A stretch of DNA of 64,000 nucleotides from Welwitschia mirabilis (taxonomy: Eukaryota). Where the stretch lies: positions 10,313,774 to 10,377,773 of the forward strand of contig JBOZIK010000001.1 in NCBI GenBank assembly GCA_051453625.1, given 5' to 3'. The position numbers and the translations under genes are program-made. Of this stretch, positions 1,002 through 56,540 are shown piece after piece (positions within the stretch are counted from its first letter, which is position 1; every line of letters begins with the position of its first letter). Below the pieces are notes generated by a model. It was not told the origin of the DNA, did no database searches, and was given only the letters and a program-made list of their open reading frames with translations.

Positions 1002-1191
1002 CAAACCCATTATCCACGAGATAATTAAATGTGTAACCGTCACAGGTATATGTAAACTTGCTGCTGTTGGAAGGAAGCTTCTGCAAGCACTGAATTGCAA
1101 TAGTGCTAAAGTTTCCCGTAAATGACGTGTACTCGGCGAGTACAACATCTCCCCTTGCGACAAAACTGTAAATCAATGTTTGCTGCCTCAT
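1002..1191 (-). CDS. VAMP72: First coding exon (longin domain) of a VAMP72-family R-SNARE, VAMP721/727-like; downstream exons lie beyond the left edge of the window
   Basis: ATG at 1191-1189 translates [63 protein letters not shown], the hallmark N-terminus of plant VAMP72 proteins. A phase-1 GT donor follows at 1001-1000 (TTTG|GTATTC). Confidence 0.93.
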
Positions 1192-1273
1192 GACTTTGTT
1201 TAGTCTCTGAAGGTTCAAAGGGACTTCAGATACAAAGCTCCGTTTTATCTCGCCTCAAATTGCAGGGAAACAG

Positions 1274-6107: not shown

Positions 6108-6427
6108 CAAGGATAAAACACAAAAAAGTTGACTCCAACTATAAAAATGACAATAAGATCTCCATTTTTTTTTAACTATTGAGTATTGGTGTGAGTTTTC
6201 TTTTCAAGTTTTTAGTTAAATTTATATTCTTAATTATGTGTTTTTTACATGCACTATGGCCTTAATGTCAATAAAGAGTTTGAAAAATAAATTGGTTATT
6301 CCATTAAGGTCATGATAAATTGAATAAATATTTTTAACTATTAATTAATTTTAAATTCTTAATATTATTTTAATATTCATGTAAAAATCAATTAGTTTTA
6401 AAATTCTTTTTTAAAATAAAAAAGAGT

Positions 6428-9400: not shown

Positions 9401-12400
9401 NNNNNNNNNNNNNNNNNNNNNNNNNNNNNNNNNNNNNNNNNNNNNNNNNNNNNNNNNNNNNNNNNNNNNNNNNNNNNNNNNNNNNNNNNNNNNNNNNNNN
9501 NNNNNNNNNNNNNNNNNNNNNNNNNNNNNNNNNNNNNNNNNNNNNNNNNNNNNNNNNNNNNNNNNNNNNNNNNNNNNNNNNNNNNNNNNNNNNNNNNNNN
9601 NNNNNNNNNNNNNNNNNNNNNNNNNNNNNNNNNNNNNNNNNNNNNNNNNNNNNNNNNNNNNNNNNNNNNNNNNNNNNNNNNNNNNNNNNNNNNNNNNNNN
9701 NNNNNNNNNNNNNNNNNNNNNNNNNNNNNNNNNNNNNNNNNNNNNNNNNNNNNNNNNNNNNNNNNNNNNNNNNNNNNNNNNNNNNNNNNNNNNNNNNNNN
9801 NNNNNNNNNNNNNNNNNNNNNNNNNNNNNNNNNNNNNNNNNNNNNNNNNNNNNNNNNNNNNNNNNNNNNNNNNNNNNNNNNNNNNNNNNNNNNNNNNNNN
9901 NNNNNNNNNNNNNNNNNNNNNNNNNNNNNNNNNNNNNNNNNNNNNNNNNNNNNNNNNNNNNNNNNNNNNNNNNNNNNNNNNNNNNNNNNNNNNNNNNNNN
10001 NNNNNNNNNNNNNNNNNNNNNNNNNNNNNNNNNNNNNNNNNNNNNNAGTAGAAAAACCACCTTTTCTTTTCTTAATTCCAAATTAGAGATATCAAATGAA
10101 TGCAAGTCTTAATACAATAACTTAAAGATAAAGATTACTTACTCTTAAAAATAAAAAATCTATATAATCTCAACCAAAACCATAGAATGACAAATATGTC
10201 TTATTATTTCTTATGTAAAAAGGCCACTACCAATGATAGGTAAGTCTTATAAACTCATAGTATGATGAATGATGTGAGTGATCTATGAGCCTTATGAAGT
10301 AATGTTATGTTGAAAGAGATGTATGATAAAGCTTAAGGTAATAATTTCTTATTCTGTGATATGGGTGAAATGTGGGATTATGTATGTGAAATGGCTTCAA
10401 GTGATGATTATACATGCAGTAATGCTTGAATGGTTCCCTAAGAGAAACATTATCAAGTAAGATTAGTTTCATTACTAGTGGACCTACCCATCCTAAGTCT
10501 AATTTAAAAGAAAAATATGATTTAAAATCATGCATGAAACTAAAAATTTATCAACATAGGATTTTCCAAACTGCTACATGAAAAGAGGCTTAAGATGATA
10601 AAGGTTATAAGGTTTAGGAGTATGATGGCTAAGGTTAAATGAATTGTCATGATTTGGGAGGTTATCTACATATGTTTGCACACACAAGTCTATGAAATCT
10701 AAGAGGACATTAACGCAAGTAGTGAATTTTATGCTTTTAAGGTCTAAAATGGTCCATCCTTTAGCTTGTTTAGGTTTTTCGAATAATTCTTGCAAGCTAT
10801 TATCTTGAGAGAAAGACAAAGATGAGTTGGAAACCAAGGGATAAAATGAATGCTCACTGAAAGAATCATGCTTAAATAGTCATTAGAAAGTGGTTATAAA
10901 TCCAAGGAAGATTTGTTTTATTCATTAACACTTGAATCTTGCTTAGAATATGAAGATGAAATAGAATCATTTTGCTTATGAAAATGTGGAGAAGAAGGCA
11001 AAAGTTCTATAGAGGATGAACGAAGTATGGGTTTTTCTTTGATGTTCTCATCCTTAAATGACTTATCTTCAAATATGTGCCTTTCCTCAAGTGTATAGAT
11101 CTCATCAAGTTATTGCTCGTTCTTTAGATCCTCATTAGTTACATTTCCATTCTTATATGATATGACTTGGGTATCATCGATTTGACTATCTTCAATTCTT
11201 TTATGGTTTTCAAGACTCCTAAGATTAGGCTCATAAAGTGTAGAAAGCTTTTTCTCTTTTCATTGATTAAGTGTACTAATGATTTAAGCATTGGTTTGGT
11301 TTAATTGTTGAATACTTTGCTTAAGCCCTTACAAGGTGTAAGAGGTTTGTTGATTAATTTACATATAAGATTCCATGAACTTTTTAAGGATGTTTTTTCA
11401 ATGAAGATGAGGAGGATTATTGAGTATTGGAATATGAAGGGTATTGGTCAAATGATGAATAATATAAAATAGAAGATGAAGCATATTCATGGGAAAATAA
11501 AGAAGAAGGATTAGAGAGTGAGGGAAATTAATACATTGACGAGGAATAAGGATTATAATGGGTGGTGAAAAACATAGGATCAAGTTCTTTTAATTAAAAG
11601 TAAGGATTTTCAAACTCACGGTCATAAGGAGATTGATTTATGTATGAAGGAGGTTCCATATGTTGAGGATAATCCCTTATGATTTACTTAGTGTCAAAAA
11701 AAAATTTGGGGTAAAAAATGGAACGAGTTTTTTTTTTAAAGAAAGAATAAAGGGTTTACTTTGAATACTTCATTAGTCCAACACCTAGAAAATAGAGTAT
11801 TTTCATAATCAACATTAAGTTCCCTTTAAAGTTTTGAAGATGTTCTTTATAATTAACCATTAGGCTTAAGTTTTAAACATTTGCAATTCCATCATATTTT
11901 TTAAGGTATCTGATACTTGAAAAGATCAAGAGAGGTGGGATGAAGGTTTTGATAAAGTTTGGTAGTAAAAGTCATAATAAAGATGGTGATGCTAGTTACT
12001 ATTCATGATGGCACTAGCTGTTTTCAAAGAAATGACTCAAAAAAACAGGGAGTTGTGTTTTAGGCCATACAAAGTGATTTTTGTAATGGAAAATAGGAAA
12101 TAAGTGATTAAAAAAAATGTTGATGTAGATATGAAACAAAAATCACATGAAAATCTTAAAAAAATAAAAACTCAAATAAAACTAATGAAAATCCAAAAAC
12201 TGAATTCAAACATAAATAGAACTGAAAGTAAAATCTTCAGAAATGGAAAATGTAGAAAAATAAAGAGAAGGAAGAGGGTTCTTCTTTATTTTCATCATCC
12301 TTAATTTCTTTAGTTTTTTTATTTTTCATCACTTTGAACTTGGTTCTAGAGAAACTAAGTAGTAAAACCTACACAAACTAGTTAGCCTTACATACAAAAA

Positions 12401-14051
12401 GATTGATAGAATAGTAATATTTCATGTTAAAGATAAAAATTTTAATGAAAACTTAAAAGAACTAAAAATATGATCTAGTTTGGGTATCGCTAAAAGGTTC
12501 TAGTACGAACCATTAGAAAGTCCAAAAATAAAAGAAATGATGAAACTAAATGCAAAAACCCAAGACAAGTTCAACTATCATTAGAATAGGACCAGTACCA
12601 ATTATTAGAGAAAGTAGAAAACAAAAACACTAAAACTAATATGCAAGAGTAGAAAAATTTGTGTGACCCCTCCTAAAGCTATTGTGCCATTATCCATAGC
12701 AATAGCATTAAAAAATTATTTGAGGTCAAGCATTTACACATAAAAACTAAGTCCTTTTTTGTAAGAAGGTCCTAGAGTCATTTGATTTTTAGGGGTAATT
12801 CCTAATATGCTATAATAAAGCAAGAACAAAACTAAATGCAAAGAATAAATTCAAAGAAAAAGAAAGTAAAAACTAGAAGAAATTTTTATAAATGATTAGG
12901 GATTGAAGCTAGGAATGAGCATAGCTCTAAAAATCTAGCATGAACAAAATAGTGATGGCAAGAGTTCCTATAATAAAAATAGACTTTCTCTATTATAAAA
13001 TTAAAACTATTAAACTTTGTTACAGCTCTATCATAGCGACATAATATCATTCACTAAATGAGTATTGGTGAAGCCCTCAAGCCATTTTAGCTCTAATAGC
13101 ATCTCCTTAAAAGCATGAAAAGTAGGATGCAATTCCCAAAGACCTTCAAATATTAGTATAAACTATGGATTAAGATGTAAACATGAAGAAATAACTAAGA
13201 AATAATACAAATCTCAAATATTTTAGTCCAATGAGAAGCAAAATAAGTATGTAAAACAACCACCCTTACTATCAAAAAGATTGCATCAAAGATTACTATT
13301 ATTTCTAGAATTATGAAAAGCATTAAAAGTATGTTGCAAGACATACTTAAAATAAAAAGATAAAATCTAAGAATAATAGAATTTTATTAGATAAAATAGA
13401 GCAAAGATATAATAGAAAATAAAAAACATCAAGCTGCAACTGAAATGTCATGCTAACCTTAAGGGCTAGTTCATCCTAAGAGAAAGATTTATAAGTGAGA
13501 CATAGAAAGCATTAGTCTTAGCATGAAGCACAAGGTAGTTGGTTCTTTCCCAAACATCCAAGATGTTACAAAGTGGGGTGCTTAAGATTCTTCATCTTCT
13601 AGTATTTGGTGAGATGGTTGGGATACTGTCTCATGGAATTTGATATCATGTACTAGGAAAACAATGGATTGTTATGATGAGTCCAACATGTGGTATTTAA
13701 AATAGGATTCCTTCACCAACTAATGCTAGTGCCATATGTTACCAATGCTCCATTATTTTATGTAAGAATGTCATTTTACAGATGAAGGTAACAAGTGATT
13801 TTAATGTAGTAACTGATTGGGCCTGCAATTAAGAATAGATAATTTCTCCATGATGAAATTAGAATATAAGTCATTATTCTAAAGAGACCAATACCACTAT
13901 AAAAACATCATGGGGAAATACATAAATTCACATATGACATGAACAAATATATAAAACATATTTTTATGATAAAACAGTTAAATTAGTATCTTCACTTATG
14001 CTAAATTGGTTTAATATACTTAAGATAAATGTTTATTTTTACATGTTAACA
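6428..14051 (-). mobile_element. Degenerate Athila-type Ty3/gypsy LTR element (LTRs about 6428-7880 and 12717-14051), no intact pol
   Basis: Two diverged direct repeats of about 1.35-1.45 kb (tattcgaggccaagc at 6428 vs tatttgaggtcaagc at 12717, continuing to tgctaaatt..atatactt.agataaa). Beside the right LTR, 12693-12710 (tccatagcaatagcatta) is a transition-decayed reverse complement of the Athila PBS TGGCGCCGTTGCCGGGGA. A weak gag-like KKYDG occurs near 11900. Confidence 0.7.
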
Positions 14052-16402
14052 AGACACTCTTAATAAAATCTCCATGATCGAAGTTTTTAATTATGAAATT
14101 GAGAAAATTCTGTTTTTCCCTTAATTTACAAATTTCAATTGCATTTTCAAATATGAAGGTATTCATAATACACACTATGTATACTTTGAGTCATATTAAC
14201 ATATTAAACATTTGTATATAATGGTATGTAATATGTTATTAGTGTGATATGAAATTGAAAAAAATCTTTTAAAATCATAAAGAATGCATAAAATCATTTT
14301 TTAATCTCTTAAACAATTGAATATCCTAAGTTTTTCACTAATTTAATAGATAAAGGTTCCAGGTTCTACAAGTAGATTTGTTCATTTATAAAACATCATT
14401 CTTATATACTACCATTAGCTCATAAAATATGATAGGTTCTAGAATCATGTAAATAAAAAAAATGTTAAACCCCTTTTTTTGTTATTTCTTGCATGGTGAT
14501 TAAAGCATATTATAAATCTTAAATACATGTTGCTTATTTTGATTTTTTATCAAAGACATTAACCACCATCAAGAAATCTTTGAAAGGTTTAAGAATAGCT
14601 TTTATTGAAGAAATTAGATTGTGGACAATCTAGAAGAAAGATTTTAAAGTGTAGGATGTAAAAGATAACTTCCTTTTAAAGTAACTATATGCCATGCAAG
14701 ACAAATAATAGAGAAAGACTAATAAGGAATTCTTGTAGCAAGAAAACAAGTACATCAATGATCTCTAATGACAACATCAAATGAATTAACAAGCAGATAC
14801 CTAACTCATTTAAAATTATCTTAAGAAAAGAGTTGAAGATATAATCAAAAGGTCATCCATATTGATCTTATCACACTATGTAAAAGATCTCTTATCATAT
14901 CCAGGGCCATGAAAATGTTGGTCTTATGTGTGTTTTACCTTAACATGTTAGTTGTTAGATAAAAATGGTGAGATTAGTGGATTATACAGTACCTTAACGA
15001 ATTGAGTTCCTTCAATAATCTTAGTCAAGTTTACACTATTTGAGAATAAAATCAAGTAGGACAAGCTTAAAAATCCACATTCAATATTTTTTCCCTCTTA
15101 TTAACTACTCTTAATAGTATGTCTAATTCTAAAGTAATGTTGCACATGTTTAACTCTATAGAGGAAAATTTCTGTTGGGATATAATTAACATCATAGTCT
15201 TAATTAATCAATTTAAGATATAAAATCTTTAATTTGGACCTCAACATTACACTATGAAATTACTAACATGAAGATCAAGGAGTTTCAGGTGATTTTAAGA
15301 TCTCATTCTTATAAATTTATGTGATTAAGCTAAAAGCACTTATAAGCAAAATGCTTAGAATTTAACCTAGATGTTGTTAACATAAAAGCACACGAAGAGG
15401 AAAAGGGAAAAAAAGCTCAAAGAACTCATATCTAATCCTGACAAACAATGAAAATACATAGTGTTTGATAATCAACTAAACATAAGACATTCAATGTTAT
15501 TAGATAGTCATTAAAGATGAGGATAAAGCATTATTTCTCATAAGTAGCCATAGCCTAGTAAATTGGTCAATAGAGCCAGTCTTGAACATGTGCAAACAGT
15601 AAAACTCATCATGGTGCATGAGATTAAAACTATAAACGTAATATATTTAGCCATTATATAACTTAAATAAAGTAATCACCAAATAAATAATGCAATATAC
15701 TTCATATAAGACATTGTCATCCTTGGTTTAGGTGAAAAATATCTATTAAATATAAAGAATATTAGACACTGTATAGAAGATATAGTCATCCATAGTATAA
15801 AATTAAAAGTAACTATTGAATATAGGAATTTAATACACTTCACAGGAGATACAGTCACCCATGTCGTAAATCAGTTAAGAAAGCAACTATAAGTAAAAAT
15901 GTAAATACATATCATTTAATCCATAATATGAAGTAAATTACAAATAGATATTCTAATAGAAACCATAATATAATTAACAAAATGTAGCTAAGGCACTATA
16001 CTATTAAATAGTTTTTATAGAAGAATATCCTATGGCTTATACATTAGGAAATGTAACCTATTACGATTACCATATAAAGTTGTAGAATCAAATAGAAAAT
16101 CACATACAATTTCACATATAAGTATGTCTGAATTCTAATTATTTCTACTGAATGAAGAACTTAACAATATTATATCATGCAAGATATCACACATTTGTTT
16201 ATACTTATCTTTTATGCTTATTCGACCCTATTCTAGACGCACTTGACATGTGAATAAATCAATACAATGATGCATGCAGTTCTACTAGATATTTTGCATG
16301 ATAGAATAGTGTTAAAAAAATTTAGAACATCTACTCATATCTACTATGTGAAAAGAAGTGATATACAGAGTCAAAGAATAGGATGAGATGCATACAAACT
16401 CT

Positions 16403-24060: not shown

Positions 24061-27000
24061 ATTCTCTCCTCCTTAGAACATTTCCTTTAGAAATGGAATG
24101 CTACAATATATACAAGTAATTATTTCTGATTTCATTCTCTAATTCCTAGGTGGCCTCTCCAAAGCCATGATTCTTCCATCTAATATTCAATTGTATAATC
24201 TTATAGTTCCATAGGATCTTTACTTTCCTTTGTAGAATTTCTATTGGTTCCTCTTGAATAGTACATTTATTTGATACTTGGAAATTGTTCCAATTTAAAA
24301 CATGTGTTGCATAAAGTACATACTTCCTAAGCACAGACACATAAAGAACATTATATAAATGTTCCAATTTTAAAGGAATAGGTAACTCATACACCACTAG
24401 ATCTACCCTTCTTAAAATATTGAATGGTTCTATGTACCTTGATGCTAATTTGGATTTTTTACACCTCCACATTTTTCATAGGTAAAATCTTAAGGAAAAG
24501 ATCACCACTTAATTCAAATTCTAAGGGTTGACTATGTTTGTTTACATACTTATTTTATCCACTAATTACTTGACTTAATATTTCCTTAATTATTTTTAAG
24601 TCCTTTTCTATGTTGTTAATTGTTTTTAGACTAATGAGAATCTTATCATCAAGGTCATTTCAAGAAGATAGAGTTCTCTGTATTATACCATACAAAGCTT
24701 CATAGGACACCATTTGGATAGAGCTATAATAACTTTTTTTACAACAAAATTCAACACTATGTAGCAGCTCATACCAATTACTAGGATGATATAATGTAGA
24801 TACTTATTGTAAATCTTCCAACACATGATTAAATCATTCTGTTTGTCCATCCATTTCAAGATGATGAGCTATGACTAAATTTAACTTAGTACCTAATAAT
24901 TGTTATAATGTTTACCAAAATCTAAAAGTAAAACAATCATTTCAATTATATATAGTCTTATAAGGTAATCCATGTAATTGAAAAATCTCTTTTAGAACTA
25001 ACCTTGTAGTTTACTTGACCAAGATCTTATTAGTAGTGGTTATAAAATGTGCTACTTTTGTTAATCGTTGAACTACTACCATAATCACATCATGCCTTAA
25101 TCTAGTCCTTGGAAATTTCACAATAAAATCCATGCTAATGATATTTCCTTTCCATTCAAGAATGTCACATGATTGTAATTCTCCACCTGTTAATCCATGT
25201 TCCACGTTGCCTGACTGATATGTAAGACACTTATTAACNNNNNNNNNNATGTACTACTTGTAACTAGGCCATCAAACTGACTTAGAAAAATCATGAAATA
25301 TTTTCATATTATAAACATTTCTTGAATATATCATGTTATGTATTTTACTTAGAATCTATTTTCAATTTATACCTTTTAGAGTGTACAAATTTCCCTTAAA
25401 TGTTAGAAATCCATTAAGAGTAAACTAAAAATTAGTTTCTAAGTTGTCTTGTTTAAATCTTCTATATTTTTCCAATGGAAATGCATCTTATTACAACTTC
25501 TAATTAAAATATTTGAGCCACCCATGAGCAATAAGAATCATAGATTTTACATATCTCCTTATACTTATTACATTAGCTATGTTGTTTCCTTTTCGTTCCT
25601 AGTACCTTATCTCAAAATCATATATGTTAAGCAATTATATTCATCTTCTTTATCTAAGATTGAGATGTGGTTGATTAAAAATATGTTTAAACTTTTGTGA
25701 TCTATTCAAACTTCCAATTCCTCTTCATATGAATAGTGTCACTATATCTTAAATACATGAAGTACTGTAGCTAATTCTAGATCATAAGTGGGATAGAGTT
25801 ATGTTTCCTTGATTCATAAGCAACAAATCTTCCATCTTACATTAAAACACAACCCTCCATAAAATGCATCTCTATATACAAAAAATGATATATCTTTTTC
25901 TAGCATGATTAACAAGGGAGGAGAAGTAATTACCTTCTTCAAGCTTTGAAAAGAATTTTCACATTTATTTGTCCATTTAAAATTCTTTTCCTTTTTTAAT
26001 AAATCTCTTAGAGGTACAACTATTTTAGAGAAATCCTTCATAAACCTTTGATAATAACTTATTAATTCTAGAAATCTATGAAATCTATGTACATTAGTCA
26101 CATTTTTAAATGTAGGCCAAGTCACTTATACCTTAGCTAGATCCACTTGGATCCTACTACTTGTGATAACATGGCAAAGGAAGTTGATTTATTGTTTCCA
26201 AAATTCACACTTCCTTGCACTAGAATAATGACAAAATAAATTGATTTCCCTTTTCTAAAAACCATACTTACTTGATTAGCATATAACTCATGATTTGTAA
26301 GAGTTTATAGGCCTATCTTTAAATGATACAAATGGTCTTCCCTTATTCTAGAGTACATAAGAATATAATCAATAAAGGTAATAACAAATTTATCTAAATA
26401 TGAAAGAAAATTATTATCCATTAAGATCATAAATAGTTCTAGAGCATTAGTTGATCCAAAAAGCATAATTGCAATTTTATAATAACCATAACATGTTCTC
26501 AATATTATTTTTAAAATATCCTTTTCTTTGATATGAAGTTAATGAAATCCTAACTTTAGCTCTATTATAAAGAAAAACTTTGTTTCTTTAAGCTATTTAA
26601 ATAGATCATTATTCCTTGGAAGTGAGTATTTATTATTGATAATAATCTCGTCTAATTATCTATAATCTATGGGGATCCTTAGTATGCCCTCGTTTTTCTT
26701 ATATCACTAGTGTTCTCCATGGTGAAGTACTTCTTAAAAAAATCTTTTATCTAAGATTTATTGAAATTGTAATTTAAGCTTCATAAGATCAGTAGGTGAC
26801 ATTCTATATGGGGCTTTAGAAATCAAGTTTGTTTAGGTAGTAAATTTATGGTAAATTCTATCTTCTTAACTAGTTGCGTAGAATGGAGTTCATTTGTAAA
26901 TAAATCCAGGTACTGTTTAACCACTGCAATGACTCATCTAGTTCTTCTAGTTCATATATCATCTATAATTAGTTATGTGATTATAGTTTAAATTTTACAA

Positions 27001-28600
27001 TTTCATCCCTTTTACCAAATCAAGTACTTTAATGCTATAAATAACATGTTTAGCATTAATTTTTAAATAGTTAAGTTTAATCCTTATTAAAATTTTCTTA
27101 AAAAATATTTATACTCAATTTTTATTATGGACAACATGTTAAGCCACTTGCTCTTTGATCAAAGGCATTATTTTTCAAGATACTCATACCATTGTCATAT
27201 CCATGGCACCATTAAAGCATGGTGAATTGTGTAAAAGTTGGTGCAAAGATTAGCTACAAGATAACAAAATAAAATCTATAAAGATTGGAAAATTTTAATT
27301 AAATTTTAAATAATCAAAAAATCTTCTAAAAGGATCTACTTAATTAATCTTAATAACTAAGTAATCTTACTTTGACAAAATTCAATGAACCTTAATGTAT
27401 GAAACATGTGAAATTAGATGTAAAGCTTCAACTCTAAGGATATGTAAGCATAATTTTCCTTAATAATTAAAGGTTTTGATCACTTCATAGTTCATTTTGG
27501 ACTCATTTATCATTTTTATAAGTATTATTGACATTCCTCTCCTCTTTTCCCTCATTTACCGTTGATCCTATTCTGTCTTTTAAGACTATGATAAGACCTT
27601 GTCTCATTATGAGGTCCTAAGCCTCTTTTCTTCCTTTTTAAGCATGTGAAAATAATTGGTTTATGAGGAAAATTCTTTATTAAGTCTAAGAACATTCTTT
27701 GTACTAGATTTTTGTTTATTATAATATTTTCGTTATTATTTAATGTAATTTGACTTTTCTTTTCTTTTTCCATCATTGATACATTTATCATTATTTACAT
27801 TATAATAGTCCATTTCAATTATTGTTTCACATCTACTTATTTGAGTTAAGTCACTTCAATATTTTATTAGGGTTTATTAGTATAGATAAGTATTAAAATG
27901 TTAGCATTTATAGCATATGTTATGCTTTTTTATACTTTTTCATACTTCTTTATCCATATTTGAATGGTAATGATATTTTAATGTGGTAAGTTCTTTGTTT
28001 ACATTTATGACATTTAAAATCTATAGTAGTTGATCTATTTCCTACCAATGTAAATCCTTGTTCCTTAATGATCTATCATTTTGGATTATGAAAATGATAG
28101 TGATTTTTGTGGTTTCCTTTATTTAGAATTTCTTTGTTATTTATCTTATGAATAATAATTTCTAGTGTTTATGAAGAGAAGTCTTTCATTATCATTTATT
28201 TTTTACATTTTTTGAAAACACATTTCATACTCTTCTTTTGATGACTTAATTTAAATAATTGTGAGCTTTAGAGTTCCCTTGCGATCTTATGAAAAAATAA
28301 TGATTAGTGTTTTCTATACTATAATTAATGGCCCTAGTTTTTACTTTAAAACTCCTATCTATGACTTGATTGCAAGAGTGTATTTCTAAGTATTATTTTC
28401 AAGATTAATTATTAAGGTATAACAAGTTTTTGACATTATTGCTATGAATTCTAATTGATGTTCCTTATCTCAATACAAAATATTTCATTTTTGTCATTTT
28501 TCTTTTCAGATTTTCTATCATCAAAATTATAAATTTTTTCTTATTTTAAGGAATATGAAGCATTTAGAGTAAAGCAGTATCTATATCTATAAAAAGTTCA
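24061..28600 (-). mobile_element. Degenerate Ty3/gypsy chromovirus (Tekay/Del type): RT-RH-INT-chromodomain, PPT and start of 3' LTR
   Basis: RT: YYKIAIMLFGSTNAL, FVITFIDYILMYS. RH: YPTYDLELA (about 25790). INT: ISMDFIVKFPRT..HDVIMVVVQRLTKVAHFI. GPY/F-like KLASRYIEPF. Chromodomain EEPIEILQRKVKILWNYKI..IRWKNHGFGEAT. PPT AAGGAGGAGAGAA abuts TATTACAACCC (decayed TG start) at 24061. The upstream (right) boundary is approximate. Confidence 0.9.
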
Positions 28601-28725
28601 CTATATATTGGCTATTTTAAATCTTGCATCTATTTGGGTTTATTCTTTCTTCTTTTTATTTTCATTAGCTATAAAAAGGATAGGGTTTTAATTTACTACC
28701 ATCCTATTACATACCTCCTTATGTC

Positions 28726-31700
28726 CTTTTTTTTATTTACTTTGAAAAAGAGCAAGAATATTAAACTAGAAAATGTACATAGAGGGGCGATAATTCCCTA
28801 ATTTCATAGGAGATTTTAGCTATTTAGAGAAAGGAAAAACATTCTATTAAAAGTTCAGAAATGGACTAGAAACAGAACAAAATTGGGAGTGAAAGAATCC
28901 TTAGGAAATAGACTAAAAATGAGAAACTGCCTATCTAGAAGAGTACTATGCATCAACTGCTGGGAAGAACTACTAACTAACAGACTGGGGGCGAAAAACC
29001 CCCTGAGTACTAGAAGTGAAAAACTTAACTTATGCTAGATAAAGACCTAAAAAGTGAAGGATTATTATCTTCTATAGAAAGAAAAAATATTACCATGGTT
29101 GTGTTTTAGTAAAAAATGACCCATTTCATCAAATAGCATCTCAAAAGCCTGATTTACCTCTTTGAATTCTTTAGCACCTACTAGATTTTTATCTAAATGC
29201 ACTCTAAGGGCTTTCTTTCTGTAGCTAGATTTAATGTCTTGAGGGAGGGCTCTGTGAAAGATTCCTAATATGATAAAGGGGCATCTCTTCAGTTCTTGGA
29301 TTGTTGCTAGTATAACTTCCTAATGTGTAGCATTTATATCTATGTCCTCCTAAGGGTGATGTTGCATTTACACTGAAGAAGAGTCTGTATTTAAATTTTG
29401 AACAAAACTAGGGCTTCTTTCTGGCTGAGGGGAGGCCTGGTTATGCCTTTCTTACTCCTGGGTATCGAATGATGGATGATCTTGAATTGACTTTTTATCT
29501 GTCTCTTGGGCTGCCTCCTAAGTTATCTCTTTGCTGGGGTAGGAACAAATTCGTCTCCTCTCTGTGGTCTAGGGGTAGAATCACCCCCTGTTAACTAGGG
29601 CTACCTTGTGCAGCATTTCCCTTAGATTGAGGAATTCCTTCCATGGTGTCTCTTCTCTTAGGAGCTCTTCTTGGTGGAGTCTAATATGGGCATCTTCACT
29701 GAGAAGGAGAAGGGACCTCTCTTACCCTGATTTCATTAGCTACTTGCTAAAGAGCTAGAAATAATCCAAAATATCTAGAGGAGTCTTTCCATCGAAGGGT
29801 CTAAACAAAAAAGAGAGGTAAATTCACTTCGAGCCCTAGGTATAGGGCTTTGAGAAATGTGAAGTAAATGCTTGAGAACTTAGAGCAATTCCTAGACTAA
29901 ATGAAATATAAGTCTACTAGCTCTGCACCTAAACCCCATGGGGGCAGTAGCATTTTTTGACTAATGTGCTCACTTGGTAACTTAGAAACCCCACCAAGGA
30001 AGAATTGAAGCACTTCACATTTCCCTTGGCTTCGAAGAGGAATCCTTTCTCCAGCTGTAGGGATCTCTAAGAGTCTATAAAGGGAATTTTCAATTATTTC
30101 ATTAGGGATTTTTCTATATGTTGTGTGCTCTCATCTCTAACACCTATAAAAGGGGGCGATATCGACCCCCTGATCTCCCTTAAGCTTGTGCAGGAGGATT
30201 TCCCATCCCATAGTGTGCACTTTTTCCCACAGGTCTAGGTAACCTTCAAAGAAGCCAGGGTTAAATAGCTCGATGGTGGGTGTAGCTCTCATTGCAAGTT
30301 TGATTTGAGAGTGATAGCATTTAATCCTCCTAGCAGTATTTAAATGAAATTGTAAGGGGGTGTTACTGAACATTAGATCATTTTTTATTCTTCAAATCTA
30401 CCAATACATCAAATGAATCCCATCATTTAAGGTAGTGTTAGAAAAGTTGCATGACTGGTAGTACTTCTTCATCATTGCTATTAATTCTTTGCTCCAAGTG
30501 CATTGATAAAATAACTAATGTATGGTTTTAGAACATGAATAGTAGACACGACAACTTGTTTCGACTTGAAACCCCCTCTTGAGCAGTTGATCTCTAGTTA
30601 GAACTCTATGATGATCTTTTAGCCAATAAGATACTTTAATTTTTTTTAGAATTTGACCCTTTCAATATTTCTTACAAGAGTTATATTTCCCATATTTCTT
30701 TAAAAGAATTTGTTTGTTTGAATCTGCTTAACAAATGTTTAAATCTAGAAGTTGTCTTTGAGCTTTGATAAAGTGTTTCCTCAAGTATAAATTGTAACAC
30801 CCCAACTTTAATTACCCTAATTAACCATAATATTTTTTTTGTATAGTTATTAACTATCATGCACAACNNNNNNNNNNNNNNNNNNNNNNNNNNNNNNNNN
30901 NNNNNNNNNNNNNNNNNNNNNNNNNNNNNNNNNNNNNNNNNNNNNNNNNNNNNNNNNNNNNNNNNNNTGGATTAAAGCTCCTTTGTAATTCTAGTTATTG
31001 CCTCCTGATTTTTCCCGGTGGTGGAAACATTAATTAAAATCCCTCATGATGAGTCATTTAGATTTATCTATCACTACCCACTGTAATTCTTTCAAGATAG
31101 AGGCTTTATCTTGATTATTTTATGGACTATAAATATTTTTTATAGTCTAGCCTTCTTCTTTAAGAAAAATTGTGATGTAGTTCTTACTGCTATTAATTAG
31201 ATCTGCCTCTTTTTTTGTGGAGATCATGAGACCTCTAGAATTATCTTGGGCTACATAGGTAAAGGAATTCCATTGCTACCTTAAACTCACTATTTTTATA
31301 CCTTTTTTTTACTTCTTGTAAATAAACTAAATCAATATTAAACTGACTAATAAGATTTCTTAGGGTCTTTTTCTTGTAGGAAGACCCTAATCCCCTGTAA
31401 TTCCATGTGAGACAATTCATTAGGGGCATTTTTGCCCCTTTCTATGTGTGTGACCTTTTGTTAGTGTATCGTCAATGATGTTTTAGGATCTATTATCCAC
31501 ATTATTTGTCGTTTTCCTTTCTCAAAGAATTTTATTGCTGGGCCTTCCTTTCATTTGAATTTTCACATCATTAGATTCATCACTATTTGGTGGTTACTAG
31601 AGGTCTTCTTCTTCAACAAGTGGTTGGAAAGGGTTGTGCTCCATTTCTTATACCTTCTTCTCCTTGCTATTCTTAGTTTCCTTGGGAAAATAGTAGTACT

Positions 31701-32968
31701 TTTCCCTGTGTTTTCCTTTCTTTGCTTATGTCGACATATGCTCAAATTATATCTGGTTTTCTCACAAAAAGTATAGGTTTTCTATTGCTTTTCCTTGATG
31801 TTAACCAACTATTTTCTACATTCTTCTCTTAAATGACCTATTCTAGCATAATATAAACATTTCTTTAGAAGAGAAACATCTTCCTGAAACATGCCTTAAT
31901 TTTCCACAAATATTATATGAGACTGAAAGATTTTCATAAATAACTTCAAGTTCATAAGTACCCCATTTAGATCTGAATTTTATGGATTGAATCTCTTTTG
32001 TATCCTTTAGGTTTATTCATATGCAAAATTTGGCCAGAATTAGTCTTATTTGTTTGACAATAATCCTATCTAGTTTGATCAGTTCACTAAACTANNNNNN
32101 NNNNNNNNNNNNNNNNNNNNNNNNNNNNNNNNNNNNNNNNNNNNNNNNNNNNNNNNNNNNNNNNNNNNNNNNNNNNNNNNNNNNNNNNNNNNNNTTTAGG
32201 TTTATTCATATGCAAAATTTGGCCAGAATTAGTCTTGTTTGTTTGACAATAATCCTATCTAGTTTGATCAGTTCACTAAACTAAGTAGCAATTTTTCTTA
32301 AGAGATCTTCATCCCAAAACTCCAATGGAAACTTATGAAAGTAAATTCAAATCAGTATCCTTTTAAATAAGTTTGGATTCGATTGCAACCTCGGTGTCCA
32401 TCTGGCTAGGGAAAGACCCCAAACCCTAAAGAACTAAGGTCCTCTTATGATTATTTTATCCCAATCTCATTCATTGTTCAACTGGAAAAGCACCAGCCCT
32501 TCCCACATAGTAATAACGTTGACTTTATTAACTCCCGTCCATTTAGCTGCCACACATTTACAGATCCAATCTATCCTTGGTCGTGGGTCAGATGAGATGA
32601 ACTTTCTGATTAAACTAAATTAAAGTTTCTTCTCAATCTCACAGTAGGCATCTTCATCAATGTACAAAACTAGGGATTTTCCTTCCCTGGCGAACTGAGT
32701 CTTCTCCATGTTGGAATCAAATCCTTTGAAAAAAAATCCTAAAAATAGATCAGAATTGATATTTTAAAAGATTATGCAACTTACTTGTAGAAAGACCATC
32801 TGCTAACTGATATCGCCCCTTGTACTTCATGACCAGGGACCGAAACTGCCCCCGCCAATCCATAGTCTTTTAAGCCTCGACTTCCTCCTGTACTCTAGAT
32901 TCATCGAACTCTAGTAGAGCTCCAAAACCCTAGCAAAGCCTCGATGTTACTTTCTTCTACTTAATCTC
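28726..32968 (-). mobile_element. L1-clade LINE: ORF1 (DUF4283 + zinc knuckle), ORF2 endonuclease, zf-RVT, extra C-terminal domain, poly(A); RT region absent at an assembly gap
   Basis: ORF1: LARWTP..FPLEFWDEDLLRKIA and GHLREEC knuckle. APE start MNCLTWNYRGLG..IDLVYLQEVK (31420). zf-RVT: VLTRDQLLKRGFQVETSCRV..TIH*LFYQC and YW*I*RIKNDLMF. Poly(T) at 28726-28734. Possible decayed TSD catacctccttatgtcct / catctctctatgttct. Confidence 0.85.
29560..30292 (-). pseudogene. Plant-mobile-domain/Transposase_32-like coding region at the 3' end of the LINE
   Basis: MRATPTIELFNPGFFEGYLDLWEKVHTMGWEILLHKLKGDQGVDIAPFY, then after one frameshift ENSLYRLLEIPTAGE..LLPPWGLGAELVDLYFI*SRN..FTFLKALYLGLEVNLPLFFV*TL, followed by a low-complexity P/S/R tail. 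The family call is from recalled motifs only. Confidence 0.55.
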
Positions 32969-33899
32969 CATCTCTCTATGTTCTTTATTCATTATTGATA
33001 GGTTGACTTATGCTTTATGTGAATATATTTTAGTTTCAACAAATTATTTTATTAATTATCTTATTTTAAATAATATAATTTTACATTTCTTAATATTAAT
33101 TTTTTCATGCTCTAAGCTTTAAATTTATTAGCATCTTTGGAATTTTTCAAGCTTTTAATTTTTTCGTTGGTATCATCCTTTGCACATTAGTGATATGTTG
33201 TGGGGGAATCCATTGATCTTAACCTCTTATGCATCATTAGATTATAGCCTAGGATGATTAAATCTGTAATGAATTTGATGAAGAGAAGAATTACCTTAAA
33301 ACACTTCTCAATTATTTTGATGAACATTCAATTAAGGCATTTTTCAAAGATAGTAAAAACTTAATATATTAGATTTAAAATAATAATTACTTTGATATTC
33401 GTTTAATGAATACAATTATGTTTGATAAAGATAGAGATAGTATTTATCCCATTTCTCTTAAGAAAACTTTAAGATATTTATGATTACTAGAATTCTTGGC
33501 TAACCCTTTTTATAGGGTTTTTTTCCTTCACACAAGGTGTTTTGAAATGTATTAAATATTATTAATTTTTTTCCCTGAATTCACTATCTAGATTAGAAGA
33601 TTTCTATGAAAATCTCTTGAATTTGAAGCCATGATGTCAACCATTTCATAAGGAGGTGAGCAAGAAAATGTGATTAGGAGGACAGTCTTTTTCTTCTTTT
33701 AAAATAAAAAGAAAAGCCTTAACTACATTTCTTAAATCATTATCAATTAGGCCATGAAGAGATCTAAATCATGATTTTTTAAAGAAAGACTTTGTAACAT
33801 ACCAAACTAATGGATTGAAATAAAAAATTCTAGATTTTACACTATTAGTAAGTTAATGTAATTGGCCTTGAGATCTATTAAGTTGATTAATGAAATATA

Positions 33900-36800
33900 A
33901 AAAAACATGTTCTATTTCATATTCAAATGATGTAAACTTTTCTACTTGGAAAAATATAATAAGATAGACATCTTTCCAAAGAAAATAAATCAATCAAGAT
34001 TTATTCAATCAAGAACAAGAAGAGACTAAGTGTGATTAAAAACTAATAGTTACACTAGCCTAAGTCGAAGGCTTAGGTAGGTGATTCATGGATGAACCAC
34101 CTACTTAACTAAACAATAATTTTATGTAATATTCTCTTGTGATGAAATAGCAATTTTGAAACAAAGTTCCATTATCAATAAATTATTAATTATACTATTA
34201 TTGAATAATATGAAATATTTGTTCCTATGTATTTTTACGCTTTTGGTTCTGCATGAATTTCCTCTAATATATTCCATTATATCATCCTTAAAAAAAAAGT
34301 TCACATGATATTGAGTCATGATCAATGTGAGAGGAGAGAGCAAAGCAAAGCATAGTTAACTACACCCCTTTAAAATGTATCTTCAAAAGGATAGATAGGG
34401 TGTATTAGTGGGAGTTACTTTTTGTAAAGGGTGTAACTTAGTCCAATCCCTTTCACAAATAACCTAGTTAGGTATGTGGCGCTTTACCCTTAGGTGTGCT
34501 TATTAGGCTAGGCATAAGTGAATGTTTATTTCTCCCTTCTACTGCTTAGGTAGTCGGTATGCCCTGCTTGAACCATAGTTCTGGTGTCATAGTATATCAT
34601 CACATCAAAATAAACTTTTAACATGGTATCAAAGCATTCCTACTATAAATTCCAACATGTTATCAGAGCTTATGGTCTTAATCTTGAAGATATAAAAGCT
34701 AAATCAAAATCAAGTTTGTTTGGAGTTAAAACTTAAGATATGGTAATAGAAAAGGAAGTTTGTTATTGAAGTGAAAGAAGTTATAACAGAACATTATAAC
34801 TATTAACAAAATAGAACAAATTCATTTATTTCATTAACTAAAAATGAGAATCAGATACTGGTTACAATGAAATAGAAGATTTAAATTAACATCATAACAA
34901 TTCATTTGAATTGATAAACTCTAAAAAGGAATAAAGTAAAGTAATTTTTCATTTAGTGGCAAGGTTTTAAAAGAGTAGAAAAAGATAAAGTAGCCACATC
35001 CTAGGATAACTAAATTTCTTCATTAATTTTGTATTAAGTGATTTGAGTTTTATTAAAGAATCAAAAGATGAATACATTAAAGAGCAATACTCTATAATCA
35101 TATTTGATGAAACTAAAAGGATAATTAATGAGTTTAGATATTAAAATTAATAACATTTAGAAAGAGCTATTCAGCTATAAATACCAAAATATCATGAATC
35201 ATTAATAAGTCATAACAAATTCCATTTGGAAATCAAAGCACTACAATCCTATATTGTGAAGTAGAAAAGGGTTTAATCTAATGGAGGAAGGACATGAAAA
35301 GCTAGTATTCTTGAGGTGTTCTGTAAACATCTGCCAAAACACATAGTGAAGAAACTATGAAACTGGGACGTTGATAGCATAGCTAATGTANNNNNNNNNN
35401 NNNNNNNNNNNNNNNNNNNNNNNNNNNNNNNNNNNNNNNNNNNNNNNNNNNNNNNNNNNNNNNNNNNNNNNNNNNNNNNNNNNNNNNNNNNNNNNNNNNN
35501 NNNNNNNNNNNNNNNNNNATTCATCCTATACTAAGCCTAATTGCAATTTCCTATTTATAGCATTGATTACTTTTGAAAGTGCAAATATAGGCGACTAACA
35601 CCAACTAATGTATTTGAAGGTTAAAATCAATAACATTCAGAAGAAATTGTCCAATTTCAAAATTCCACTGAGCATTAAAACATAAGAATAAGTTTCATAG
35701 AAGAAATAAAAGACTAAAATCCTATATTATAGAGTGATAAGTCTATTAATATAATATATATATATATATATATATGACATAAACATTAGCATAATTAAGA
35801 TGTTATACAAAATCTACCAATATACTTAGTGATGAAACTACAAATCTAGAAGTTGATAGCATAGATAATGTAATGTTATTCCTATTTATTAAAGATAAAG
35901 GTCTCTAATCACTATAGAAGTTTACTTATAAGTTAAAATAGAATAAAATATTTTATTTTTGCCATAATAAAACGTGATGTTCTACTTTCATCCTTCTTAT
36001 AATTTGAGACATTATTATGAATAAAATAATATTTTACAAAATAATGCTAACATCATTTCATTATACTTTCTTCAAATAAATATTATGGATATGTACTTTA
36101 GAATGTATAATTTCTAAGATATATTAAGCATGCTTTTCAAATTTAACAATAAAGTAGTTTTTCCTATCAAATTATGGCATATTAAATAAAACTCCAAATT
36201 TATTTTTAATCTCATGATGAAATATGCCAAATAATATCTATAAAGAGGGCAAAAAACCAACATTACCTTTTTTCATGGCTTACGAAGAAGGAAGCTCTGC
36301 AAAATGGTTTAGAATGATTTTGCAATACTTTGTAATCCTCCCATGTCTTATGAGTAAGTTCTTATAAATTATTATGAACTTATTGCAATAATGTCATTAC
36401 ATTCATTATTTTTCTCTTTTTGTTTCTTCATACTATATTGTTATATCAAGAACTGTACAAAGTTCAAACTCTATCATTACAAAGTGAGAATCAAAGGATT
36501 TAAAAACAAGAATTATATGCCTTCACAGCATAAGAAAGATTACAAATACCATTTAAACACAATCACTTTGTGTTATAATGATTCATAAAAAAAAGGGGAA
36601 TTCTTAGATTAGTGGTTCAATCTAACCTCTAATACTTGAAATTCATGTATCTTCTAATAAATGAAAAAGGTTGTAATTAAAAAGGTAATTCATGATATAG
36701 AAGACATCATAGCAATAAATTTTGACATTAGAAAGAATAAATATACTTTTTTAAAAAGTAGTAGCTAAAGAAAAATGAAATATAATGGCTAAAAACTTTA

Positions 36801-38470
36801 GTAGCAGTTAGAAAGAAATGAAAAATGATAATGAAACACTTTAGTGATAGCTAAAAAATAAAATAACAACAACAAAATACCTGATTAGTAGCTAAATGAA
36901 AATAAAAAATAATGGAAAAACACTTAAATAAGAGCTTAATAAGAAAGAGTCCTAGCACACTTGACTAAAAGAAAACAAAATCCTAATGCTATAGAAAAAA
37001 GAATGAAATAGAAAGAGAACTGAAGCAAAAGATGTAGGGATTAGATGAAGCATAAAACACCATCAAAGAGTTTCACTATCAAATTAAAGAACTTCATTAA
37101 AGACCAAGTCTAAAGCCTAAATCAGTTATTAATGCTAAGATAGAGTAATCTACACTATCTGAGAAGTCCTAAGAAACCATACTAGATGAAGTAAAAGTTG
37201 TCAAACTTGCTAGCAATCAAAAAGCTTCTGAATATTGCATAATGTTATTCATTCTCATTGAAGAAGACAAACTAGATCCTGAACATCTAATTTTAAAGTT
37301 GTTTAGTAAAATGTAGGATCTTGCTATTTTAAGTTAAAAGAAATTTTACCTTCTAAAATCTTGTCCTTATAAAAATTCATACTTTATTAAAATACTAGAA
37401 AAAGTAAAGTTATAATAGGTATTTTTGTTTGTATTTTACTTTATCCAAGGAATGAAATAAGCCCTTAACATGAAACAAATACTTTAGTTATCTACCTTAA
37501 ATAAATAATATTGATTACTGGATAAGTATTTTGCTAATTTAAATGGAATAGAAGGTAAATATATTGAATTAAGATAAAGTAATAAAAATGATTAATCAAG
37601 AAAAATTCTTAATACCTTAAGAGGTGAAAAATGTTTAAAAATATTGAAAGAGATCAAGTTTTTTAAAAAATCACTATCCAACTAGAAATTTTAGCTGAAT
37701 ATCAAATGATTTTCTTTGAAGGTACTAAAATACATATAAAAGAGAAGAAAGATAAGTAAACATAAAACAAGGAAATGAATATAAATCACTTTAGATGAAT
37801 AAAAACATAAGAAATCTAAAATTACATCTTAGAAGATGGATTATGTTAGATAAATCAAAAGATAACAAGTCTAAAAATACAATTTAAAAGATGAATAAAA
37901 TCAGAAGAACCAAGGATAAAAAGTCAGAAATTAAATTCCTCAAATTAAAAAGTCTAAGAGTAAAACCCAAGTTAAAATTAAAAAGAAATGTTAGCAAGTT
38001 AACATCATTGTCCTTAAGACAATTGTTAAGTTGGTTAATAAAACATGAAGAGACATGTTCTATTTCATATTCAAATAAAATAACATTTCCTAATGGGAAG
38101 AACACTATAAGATCAAGAATAATCAAGATACATTCAACCAGGGAGAAGAAGATATTAAGTATGACAAAGTACTTCTATCCACACCAAATGTTCATCTAGG
38201 GCTTTGATAGGTGATTCATTCATGAACCACTTGCTTGACTAAATAATAATTTTATGTAATATTCATCTTATAATGAAACAGAAATTTTGTAATAAGGTCT
38301 AATTATCAATGAATATTAATTACATTTTTATTAATTATATGAAATATTGGTTCCTCTAGTTTTATTTAATTTTTACTACTTATAAATTAAGTTTAATTAC
38401 TATTAAAAAACTAATAAAATATTTTGCATAAATCATATTCTCATACTTTCTCTTCCACATGAATTTCTTT
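33900..38470 (+). mobile_element. tRNA-Met-primed reverse-transcribing element remnant (non-autonomous LTR element or endogenous caulimovirid)
   Basis: Direct repeats at about 33900-34270 and 38050-38470. PBS-like TGGTATCAAAGC at 34624-34635 follows ...AACA, with a second copy TGTTATCAGAGC at 34658-34669. The interior is A-rich and decayed. Confidence 0.5.
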
Positions 38471-48044: not shown

Positions 48045-49755
<1,711 letters not shown>

Positions 49756-55000: not shown

Positions 55001-56540
55001 ATTTAATAGAAACCTAATTCAAGATGAATTCTAAATTAGAAGAAATAGACTATAATCCAAATGCAAGTATGACAAAAGTAAGGACCACTAATTTCGGAAT
55101 GGAAAATAATATTCTTAGAACTTAGCAAATTACTAAACAAAAGAGTAATGACCTTGACAATAATTCTAATAAATCGAAAACACAGTTTTATTGAATTTGA
55201 AAATTGACTTACAAGTCTTGACTACTTTTAGAAGGGACTCAATTGAGATTGANNNNNNNNNNNNNNNNNNNNNNNNNNNNNNNNNNNNNNNNNNNNNNNN
55301 NNNNNNNNNNNNNNNNNNNNNNNNNNNNNNNNNNNNNNNNNNNNNNNNNNNNNNNNNNNNNNNNNNNNNNNNNNNNNNNNNNNNNNNNNNNNNNNNNNNN
55401 NNNNNNNNNNNNNNNNNNNNNNNNNNNNNNNNNNNNNNNNNNNNNNNNNNNNNNNNNNNNNNNNNNNNNNNNNNNNNNNNNNNNNNNNNNNNNNNNNNNN
55501 NNNNNNNNNNNNNNNNNNNNNNNNNNNNNNNNNNNNNNNNNNNNNNNNNNNNNNNNNNNNNNNNNNNNNNNNNNNNNNNNNNNNNNNNNNNNNNNNNNNN
55601 NNNNNNNNNNNNNNNNNNNNNNNNNNNNNNNNNNNNNNNNNNNNNNNNNNNNNNNNNNNNNNNNNNNNNNNNNAAACACAGTTTTATTGAATTTGAAAAT
55701 TGACTTACAAGTATTAACTACTTTTAGAAGGGAATCAATTGAGATTGACAAGATTCAAGACTCGACTTGCAATTTGCAGACTATTAATTTGACAGGATGC
55801 TTGTGGAATTACTTGGATGTCATTTTCCATACCTTTGAAAGGAAGAATGAGGCCCTTTTAGAAAAATGGGGAGATTTTAGAGGCTTCATTGAGATTTTGT
55901 TAAAGGTTGTTTGGGGTGGTTAGAGATTGATCAAAATTTTTGGCAGGCATGTCAAAGGACTTTTCGAACATGAGTCTTTGATTTTTCCCAGTTTTTGATG
56001 ACTGTCTTCAAAAAGTCTGTTATCGATAATAGTGTTATTACAACAGAGTTTTTAAAAATTCTATTTTCAGAGCTGTGTTTCTCTTTTTAGAATTACATTT
56101 ATTGTTTTCATGATAAAATAAATTATTCTTGAGGAGAATTAATAAATTTTCCTCATAATTTCCCCCCTTTTATGATAAAAATTTTGGAATTTACATCAGA
56201 AAACCAAAGGAGTAAAAGGCTCCAACCTTGCGTAGAATTAAGTGATGATGAATTAAATAGAATTTCTTTGACATCGTCTTCATTTATGATGTTTGACTGC
56301 TTCTAAGAAACTGTCATGGTTAGACTTTTGAGGTTATTTTCTTTCCATACAACTTCTCATTCTATACTAATACAATCTTTAGGTCTGAACTCACTTATGA
56401 TTGAATGTGTAGCATGCCCCTTAAAGCTCTAATAATATTTAAATGAATAGAATGAATGATATGTGGAACTAGTTCCACATATTCAACTTCTAGATTTAAT
56501 CCTCCTCTGAGAGCTTCAAGTTTTTCGTCCAATTGATTTT
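52020..56540 (-). repeat. Tandem duplication of an about 2.2 kb unit (52020-54190, 54200-56540) in the 3' region of the Tat/Ogre element
   Basis: The two units are colinear over their length, with shared anchors catgaaatct, ctactttgtgaaacatttct, aaacatgaatatttaga, gaatgtgtagcatgcccc. The copies are clearly diverged. Confidence 0.9.

Follow-up and report, generated by a model that had tools for sequence, protein, structure and literature searches.

A decayed L1-type LINE of Welwitschia mirabilis whose coding region appears to extend past ORF2 into an orphan domain and a J-like domain

We report that a decayed long interspersed nuclear element (LINE) of the L1 type in Welwitschia mirabilis appears to carry coding sequence well beyond the point at which such elements usually end. 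The element lies on the minus strand of a 64,000-nucleotide stretch of DNA (assembly GCA_051453625.1, contig JBOZIK010000001.1, forward-strand positions 10,313,774 to 10,377,773; 30% GC), which we call the window and whose own numbering is used throughout. In the plant L1 elements described so far, the second open reading frame (ORF2) ends after the zf-RVT domain or adds an RNase H domain. The stretch studied here is probably the 3′ half of a dead plant LINE of this type, with a coding region that runs far past the usual ORF2 end. In the layout we propose, the zf-RVT frame leads into an orphan domain of about 185 amino acids (aa), followed by a charged linker of variable length, a C-terminal J or J-like domain, a short 3′ untranslated region (UTR) and an A-tail. 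An extra domain and a J domain also follow ORF2 in a second, very diverged LINE, and comparison of the two sequences indicates that this layout is a feature of the family. The module is a conserved, formerly coding part of a LINE lineage, and we consider its architecture well supported by the two copies.

The junction itself is readable in the window. The zf-RVT domain of ORF2 lies at 30485-30700 (PF13966, E 1.9e-7 and 9.6e-8 in two scans, which scored 32.1 and 33 bits where the cutoff is 27.5), and the ORF2 tail beyond it, at 30293-30484 (..YW*I*RIKNDLMF..IKLA), shares its frame and is open over the junction. An earlier note on this DNA had read the W*I*RIKNDLMF motif as continuing in the same frame, free of stops, into an extra domain. 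Indeed, a stop-free frame of 84 codons (30391-30137) leads from RIKNDLMF across the junction into MRATPTIELF..GWEILLHKLKG..APFYRC. The extra domain occupies 29738-30292, begins with Met, stays in the ORF2 frame and contains five in-frame stops. The further blocks reported for it, LLEIPTAGE.., LLPPW, YF and FLKALYLGLEVNLPLFF, are all present in the window. However, the single frameshift that had been placed before LLEIPTAGE is not there: these blocks share the frame of APFYRC, and the two parts are separated by two stops, TAG at 30139 and TGA at 30133. Three more in-frame stops follow at 29899, 29803 and 29749. Overall, the domain frame holds 9 stops in 333 codons, whereas the alternative frames hold 24 and 30 and about 22 would be expected from composition, and this low count is more than chance. 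The copy as a whole is dead and worn by deamination.

The second LINE provides the strongest evidence that this junction is not a peculiarity of one locus. It lies on the plus strand of a metagenome contig of 13.9 kb and 34% GC (L001), retrieved as the contig encoding P0002, a short relative of the extra domain, and it is far less decayed. Its recognisable parts are the DUF4283 domain of ORF1 (PF14111, E 4.6e-20), an endonuclease of the Exo_endo_phos_2 type (PF14529, E 9.1e-8, over the cutoff), the reverse transcriptase RVT_1 (E 2.2e-18), a zf-RVT domain (E 1.6e-5; 25.9 bits, just under the 27.5-bit cutoff) and, near the 3′ end, a DnaJ domain (PF00226, E 3.6e-7, 30.6 bits). In the interval that separates zf-RVT from DnaJ, and read in the same frame as zf-RVT, sits the homologue of the orphan domain. 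The order of parts is the same in both LINEs: DUF4283, endonuclease (in the window a putative remnant scoring below the cutoff), reverse transcriptase (in L001), zf-RVT, orphan domain, linker and J domain.

A single colinear BLASTP alignment spans zf-RVT, the ORF2 tail and the extra domain, joining window 30601-29738 to L001 5003-5878 (297 columns, 25% identity, E 1e-16), with each sequence read in one frame and the two ORF2 tails aligned colinearly. The domain of the window alone also finds L001 by tblastn (30% identity over 158 aa, E 4e-12). The frame is open over the junction in both copies (30391-30137 in the window, 5213-5389 in L001), and neither has a stop between zf-RVT and the domain. 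The earlier claim that this LINE family includes the extra domain, in frame with ORF2, thus gains a second witness: the junction that might have been unique to the window recurs, in the same frame, in a diverged element.

How diverged these elements are is apparent from the level at which they can still be compared. No DNA-level similarity was found between the window LINE and the L001 LINE, and what remains is frame-specific protein similarity, amounting to 40-45% in ORF1 (for the ORF1 remnant of the window, 40% identity by tblastn, E 2e-22) and 30% in the domain. Since the module keeps its place and order in two LINEs without DNA similarity, it would have been retained through a long divergence of active lineages; and since protein similarity in one frame has outlasted similarity of the DNA, it would have been kept under selection during that divergence. 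The two LINEs therefore appear, on these comparisons, to be old and separate lineages that both kept the module. Further, the L001 copy retains a strong coding signal. The frame read through its zf-RVT and domain contains 4 stops in 378 codons, whereas the two alternatives contain 22 and 40, and the frame of its charged linker and J domain has 10 stops in 659 codons, against 37 and 76, where the expected rate for this contig is 0.072 stops per codon. This low stop density marks about 2.7 kb past zf-RVT as formerly coding. The element differs from described plant L1s by carrying, in L001, some 2.7 kb of extra coding sequence. A run of nine A residues (A9) follows about 150 nt past the stop of the J ORF.

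To see how widely the element is repeated and where it ends, Logan contigs from the DNA runs X1 and X5 were aligned to 28500-30860 with an identity threshold of 80%. The 13,401 (X1) and 12,757 (X5) contig pieces cover the whole stretch from 28737 upward. Summed contig depth, which is not the same as copy number, reaches thousands over zf-RVT, 630-2200 over the orphan domain and 8000-15000 over the J domain. In the linker, at 29448-29605, it sinks to 110-210, as against hundreds to thousands on either side; this linker (29278-29737) is short in the window, about 550 codons long in L001, and poorly shared among the genomic copies. The stretch down to the terminal A-run is multi-copy in its entirety. 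No cluster of loose ends falls at the zf-RVT/domain junction (~30300) among those listed, and no second copy was found within the window itself by blastn or tblastn. Transcription of the stretch is thinly sampled: the RNA raw reads that match at 80% identity or more number 115 (X14) and 36 (X17), mostly below 90% identity.

The 3′ edge of the element is equally sharp. About 330 nt of non-coding sequence separate the J ORF from the A-run, and this 3′ UTR (28735-29064), with 7, 9 and 11 stops per frame in ~110 codons, is still multi-copy. At the A-run, depth falls from 2804 (X1) and 4683 (X5) over 28737-28815 to 80 in both runs over 28658-28736, a drop of about 35-fold and 58-fold, respectively. 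What had been called a poly(A) is a run of merely eight A residues (A8, 28727-28734), which nevertheless coincides with the 3′ edge of the repeated element; sequence and depth together place the end of the element here.

These observations bear directly on the possibility that a truncated LINE simply abuts something unrelated, such as the 5′ portion of a Ty3/gypsy retrotransposon. The pol region of such an element does lie just downstream on the same strand (27000-24300). Yet L001 has this junction too, the repeat breaks off at 28734-28727 with about 1.5 kb still separating it from the gypsy pol, and no repeat pairs resembling long terminal repeats (LTRs) involve 28700-30860. Chance juxtaposition or nesting is consequently an extremely improbable account. 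We rejected the specific idea of nesting within the gypsy element, which both the L001 junction and the depth drop at the A-run contradict.

A separate feature of the depth profile lies close to an assembly gap at 30868. A piece of about 45 nt, AT-rich, at 30793-30837 has a summed depth of ~524,000 (X1) and ~395,000 (X5), compared with thousands nearby, and shows loose ends on both sides. This peak is either a very high-copy short repeat or an effect of low complexity.

Of the parts beyond ORF2, the J domain is the best identified. The earlier note had described a disordered tail here. That tail has a recognisable feature: its +1 frame encodes a DnaJ-type J domain at 29125-29277 (PF00226, E 6.4e-10; 39.4 bits, with the cutoff at 27.8), within an ORF of 84 codons (29319-29065) that lies about 400 nt 3′ of the orphan domain and is shifted by +1 from its frame. 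The sequence is canonical across helices I-IV. The J domains of the window and L001 share 30% identity (E 3e-5), and their alignment extends beyond the generic core to a common start (RC..) and a His-rich extension past helix IV (H..H.H..IF). The L001 J domain also matches solved DnaJ/Hsp40 J domains (phmmer E ~5e-6).

Within the J domain of the window, a segment of 48 nt (29143-29190) behaves unusually in the RNA data. Read clusters match here alone and then diverge with consistent flanks; loose ends in this segment number 9 and 11 in X17 (agreement 1 and 0.98), and there are 5 at 29190 in X14 (agreement 0.86). The pattern suggests that the segment also occurs in some other, expressed locus, which might be a J-protein gene of the host or an exapted copy.

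It is conceivable that the domain and J segment are a passenger, acquired once from a host gene or another element by 3′ transduction or template switching and then propagated without being of use to the LINE. LINEs in general are known to transduce their 3′ flanks, neither J domain has the HPD tripeptide, and the RNA reads diverging around 29143-29190 hint at an expressed locus elsewhere with the J segment. Against this, the module occupies the same place, in the same order, in two LINEs that lack DNA similarity and have 25-45% protein identity; both copies keep the domain in the ORF2 frame, uninterrupted by a stop where the two meet; and the low stop density of L001 over ~2.75 kb past zf-RVT speaks for former coding function. 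A passenger origin therefore strikes us as quite improbable.

The orphan domain is harder to place. Its closest relatives are two short ORFs. P0001, a 91-aa ORF whose source label names a Welwitschia mirabilis transcriptome, shares 58% identity across residues 1-90 (phmmer E 5.3e-24), begins at the same Met as the window domain and is labelled a complete ORF. P0002, the 86-aa ORF encoded on L001, is 39% identical over residues 123-184 (phmmer E 4.3e-4). A word-index protein search with the window domain among proteins of similar length gave no match, and the corresponding profile search gave P0001 and P0002 only. Searches with the L001 ORF against genome contigs and with P0001 against viral contigs found no related loci.

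Equally, no named family accounts for the domain. The earlier note had assigned it to a plant mobile domain (PMD) or Transposase_32-like type, and no alignment-based test supported this assignment. At E<=1, Pfam gave no match for the domain in the window, P0001, P0002 or L001, including to PMD, Transposase_28, Transposase_32 and RNase H. PMD (PF10536) and Transposase_28 (PF04195) matched nowhere in the scanned parts of the window, and the ESM Atlas gave no lead to either. For RNase H, no Pfam family matched the LINE in 27001-33300 on the minus strand or L001, so that this identity for the extra domain is unsupported as well. A profile search of sequences in the Protein Data Bank gave at best E 0.68 to a ribosomal protein, which we took as noise. 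The domain is predicted, with low confidence, to be mostly helical. On all these comparisons the extra domain is an orphan, lacking a detectable family.

The one lead is to Transposase_32 (PF20167). By ESM Atlas features, the nearest Pfam-named cluster to the N-terminal half (P0001) is PF20167 (0.89, the name being present in 49% of members), with ATHILA ORF-1 next at 0.88. For the C-terminal half (L001 5627-5941), the sixth-ranked cluster, with a score of 0.90, is one of PF20167, and 9 among 30 matches belong to the PF20167 set. The features in common number 156 for the N half and 153 for the C half, short of the 170 or more that nine in ten same-family matches share under the Atlas guide, where such scores are leads and not evidence; the recognition value of the C half, 2260, is likewise below the tool's mark of 2300.

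A reference for PF20167 was sought with a short motif, LVREFYAN, in back-translation. It gave 4 chance matches in viral contigs and 45 chance-level matches in bacterial genome contigs, 10 of which, chosen for low GC and a long ORF, were scanned with Pfam. One of these ten, L023, is a true PF20167 member with the full domain split over two frames (profile positions 2-72, E 1.8e-12, and 75-177, E 2.4e-14); with 47.9 and 54.1 bits against a gathering score of 45, it served as a control. A hhalign comparison of the three-sequence orphan profile with both L023 halves gave a probability of 0.2%, and Smith-Waterman alignment of the orphan domain with L023 over 300 shuffles gave z of -1.1 to 1.2 in all six comparisons; both tests have low power with such thin profiles (effective number of sequences, Neff, 1.6 vs 1).

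L023 is of some interest in itself. Its plant-type PF20167 coding region (770-2034, minus strand) lies in a contig filed under a metagenome-assembled genome of Planctomycetota, and has 34-39% GC compared with 57% at the start of the locus. It is likely to be plant DNA that was mis-binned, or a chimera, in that assembly.

We have nevertheless considered, along the lines of the earlier note, whether the orphan domain could be a very distant member of the Transposase_32 or ATHILA ORF-1 group, captured from an accessory ORF of an Athila-like Ty3/gypsy element. In favour of this, PF20167 is the nearest named family by Atlas features for both halves (0.89 and 0.90), though as a lead only. Further, a passage of one study (PMC11728184) links PF20167 to Athila ORF1 and places it in an extra ORF of an Athila element. 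By eye, a pattern 'GW..L....FY....(V/F)R(G/K)..(V/I)P' seems common to the orphan domain and L023, a resemblance noted by inspection. Yet Pfam at E<=1 gave no match in any of the four versions scanned, the hhalign and Smith-Waterman values just given offer no sign of kinship, and both feature counts and the C-half recognition fall below their marks. We see this origin as possible, but doubtful.

Taken with the remaining parts, such an origin would imply that a plant L1 lineage built a three-part accessory module onto ORF2, composed of a distant domain of Athila type, a charged linker and a J-like tie to Hsp70. As a complete picture this seems unlikely to us. If it were true, it would represent both an exchange of domains between classes of retroelements and the first LINE-encoded co-chaperone.

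Several observations weigh against our reading of the module as a conserved part of a LINE lineage. Readable copies number two, the window and L001; both are broken, and no intact ORF2-domain-J frame was seen in either. An exhaustive phmmer search of the read-through window domain against 1.84 billion representative proteins returned P0001 and P0002 as its two matches, both of them short ORFs, and a word-index profile search among longer proteins found none in 7998 scored candidates, which is weak evidence. The AlphaFold2 model built from a three-sequence alignment was unusable, with a mean predicted local distance difference test (pLDDT) of 37.5 and a predicted template modelling score (pTM) of 0.30. 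One of the DNA runs, X1 or X5, may be the sample used for the window's own assembly. Target-site duplications were not found: in a search for upstream repeats of at least 10 nt, with at most one mismatch, of the sequence that follows the A-run, L001 gave none and the window a single 10-mer with a mismatch, a null that is weak evidence as the 5′ ends are undefined and the copies old. The A-rich ends are present in both (A8 in the window, A9 in L001).

The two remaining points concern the J domain. The HPD tripeptide, between helices II and III, is the motif needed for stimulation of Hsp70. It is altered in both copies, to HLD in the window (CAT TTA GAT) and to YLD in L001 (TAC TTG GAC). In X1, the majority contig letter at 29196 changes A to G (3785/4348 depth), turning TTA into CTA, still Leu, among the rows listed; the variant table is partial, with 821 rows beyond those listed, so that a Pro variant at the HPD position is possible. 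The codon differences at this position are C-to-T changes. Long-term deamination has been named as the cause of the GC-poor Welwitschia genome in a part of PMC8275611. Further, the J domain is shifted from the frame of the orphan domain by +1 in the window but by -1 in L001, so that a single fused ORF including the J part is at most putative. Offsets of opposite sign imply that at least one of the copies bears an insertion or deletion.

This offset raises the question of how the module was translated. It could be real and yet have been expressed apart from ORF2, either from a downstream ORF3 with its start at a conserved Met or from this and a further ORF for the J domain. The domain begins with Met in both the window and P0001, and L001 has an M at the corresponding place in the alignment; P0001 carries the label of a complete ORF from that Met, and the J module lies outside the frame of the domain in both copies. 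However, zf-RVT and the domain share a frame without an intervening stop in both copies, offsets of +1 and -1 are more readily explained by indels in dead copies than by an overlapping ORF that was conserved, and the first Met of the L001 J frame comes some 70 codons into it. Translation as separate ORFs is accordingly an unlikely arrangement in our view.

If the module was instead translated with ORF2, as we prefer, its roles can be sketched. We speculate that the orphan domain was made as a C-terminal fusion of the ORF2 protein and acted in cis on the element's own ribonucleoprotein particle (RNP). The J or J-like domain would have engaged host Hsp70 for assembly, remodelling or trafficking of the RNP, much as the J domains of viruses do. 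With HPD reading HLD or YLD, the J-like domain may have bound Hsp70 without stimulating it, or served another role, and this would hold in particular if HLD is ancestral. An anti-silencing function of the extra domain, raised in the earlier note, is possible as a matter of speculation. So far, the lineage bearing the module has been seen in one very GC-poor, gymnosperm-like genome and one environmental contig.

The upstream parts of the window LINE complete the picture of an L1-type element. An ORF1 remnant with DUF4283, the plant L1 ORF1 type, lies at 32212-32565 (minus strand, PF14111, E 1.8e-16). Between it and zf-RVT, at 30970-31441 on the same strand, is a stretch with weak similarity to an APE-type endonuclease (PF03372, E 0.0064; 16.7 bits, under the curated cutoff of 24.5), which we identify as the start of ORF2 because of this position. 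The six-frame Pfam scan gave no RVT_1 match for the window LINE, and a gap of 100 N (30868-30967) occupies the place where the rest of the endonuclease and the reverse transcriptase would be expected. A second gap of 100 N, at 32095-32194 inside ORF1, is flanked by an 89-bp direct duplicate of 98.9% identity (32006-32094 / 32195-32283), and is probably an assembly artefact of overlapping contig ends.

The neighbourhood is rich in other mobile elements. Just downstream of the LINE lies a Ty3/gypsy pol remnant (24317-26700, minus strand), comprising RVT_1 (26700-26275, E 3.3e-8), RNase H (25975-25676, by Pfam) and an integrase domain, SH3_Tf2-1 (24472-24317, E 3e-11); comparison of the window with itself found no LTR pair for it. 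A retroviral polymerase SH3-like domain at 4022-4228 (plus strand, PF25597, E 1.6e-12) is an integrase fragment of another LTR retrotransposon. Four pairs of direct repeats, 52099-53109 / 54231-55244 (84%), 6417-7291 / 12709-13583 (80%), 2922-3536 / 14065-14675 (75%) and 33845-34226 / 37991-38355 (73%), are probably LTR pairs or tandem copies of transposable elements. Two traces of host genes are also visible. Four ORF pieces matching AMMECR1 (PF01871) at 48423-49752 on the plus strand follow successive profile positions 31-166 (best E 5.5e-9), and look like a host gene or pseudogene with introns. The start of a Longin domain, resembling regulated SNAREs, in an ORF at 973-1254 on the minus strand (PF13774, E 6e-7) is possibly an exon of a host VAMP/longin gene.

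Gains of domains by LINEs are rare and informative, and each known example, the archaeal-type RNase H of plant L1s among them, altered the life cycle of the element. A retrotransposon with its own Hsp70 adaptor would parallel the J proteins of viruses, and would provide a handle on how the RNPs of plant LINEs use host chaperones. If the orphan domain were related to Athila ORFs, LTR and non-LTR elements would draw on a common pool of accessory domains, possibly with counter-silencing roles. More practically, the domain flags an unannotated protein family for transposable element libraries of GC-poor gymnosperm genomes. Our searches of the open-access literature, taken without supplements, turned up neither a LINE described as bearing a PMD, Transposase_32 or J domain nor a J domain encoded by any retrotransposon, and the main text of one L1 survey contains neither 'DnaJ' nor 'PMD' (PMC5203782).

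Among known systems, the element is most like the plant L1-clade LINEs, which combine a DUF4283/zf-CCHC ORF1 with an ORF2 of APE endonuclease, reverse transcriptase and zf-RVT. It shares with them an ORF1 of the DUF4283 type, the order of endonuclease, reverse transcriptase and zf-RVT as read in L001, an A-rich 3′ end and a multi-copy state. Unlike them, its ORF2 runs past zf-RVT into the orphan domain, and then towards a J domain. There is a precedent for an added domain: Smyshlyaev et al. are said to have described in 2013 how plant L1s gained an RNase H domain at the C-terminus of ORF2. The Transposase_32 and ATHILA ORF-1 (PF03078) accessory ORFs of Athila elements resemble the orphan domain in size (the PF20167 profile has 177 positions) and in being borne by plant retroelements. 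They differ in that the host element here is a LINE, not an LTR element, that the domain is in frame with ORF2, and that no similarity appears at the level of hidden Markov models, profiles or pairwise alignment. A passage of PMC11728184 reports PF20167 in the extra ORF of a sunflower Athila element. With the PMD (PF10536) proteins MAIN and MAIL1 and with Transposase_28 (PF04195), the likeness is confined to the general theme of accessory domains carried by transposable elements.

The J domain invites a different comparison. Viral J domains, for example those of polyomavirus T antigens, engage host Hsp70. Like the viral J proteins, the LINE would be a mobile parasite with its own J domain for using host Hsp70. 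Unlike J-domain proteins, it reads HLD or YLD in place of HPD, and the protein in question comes from a LINE, with the J domain placed C-terminally behind a long charged linker.

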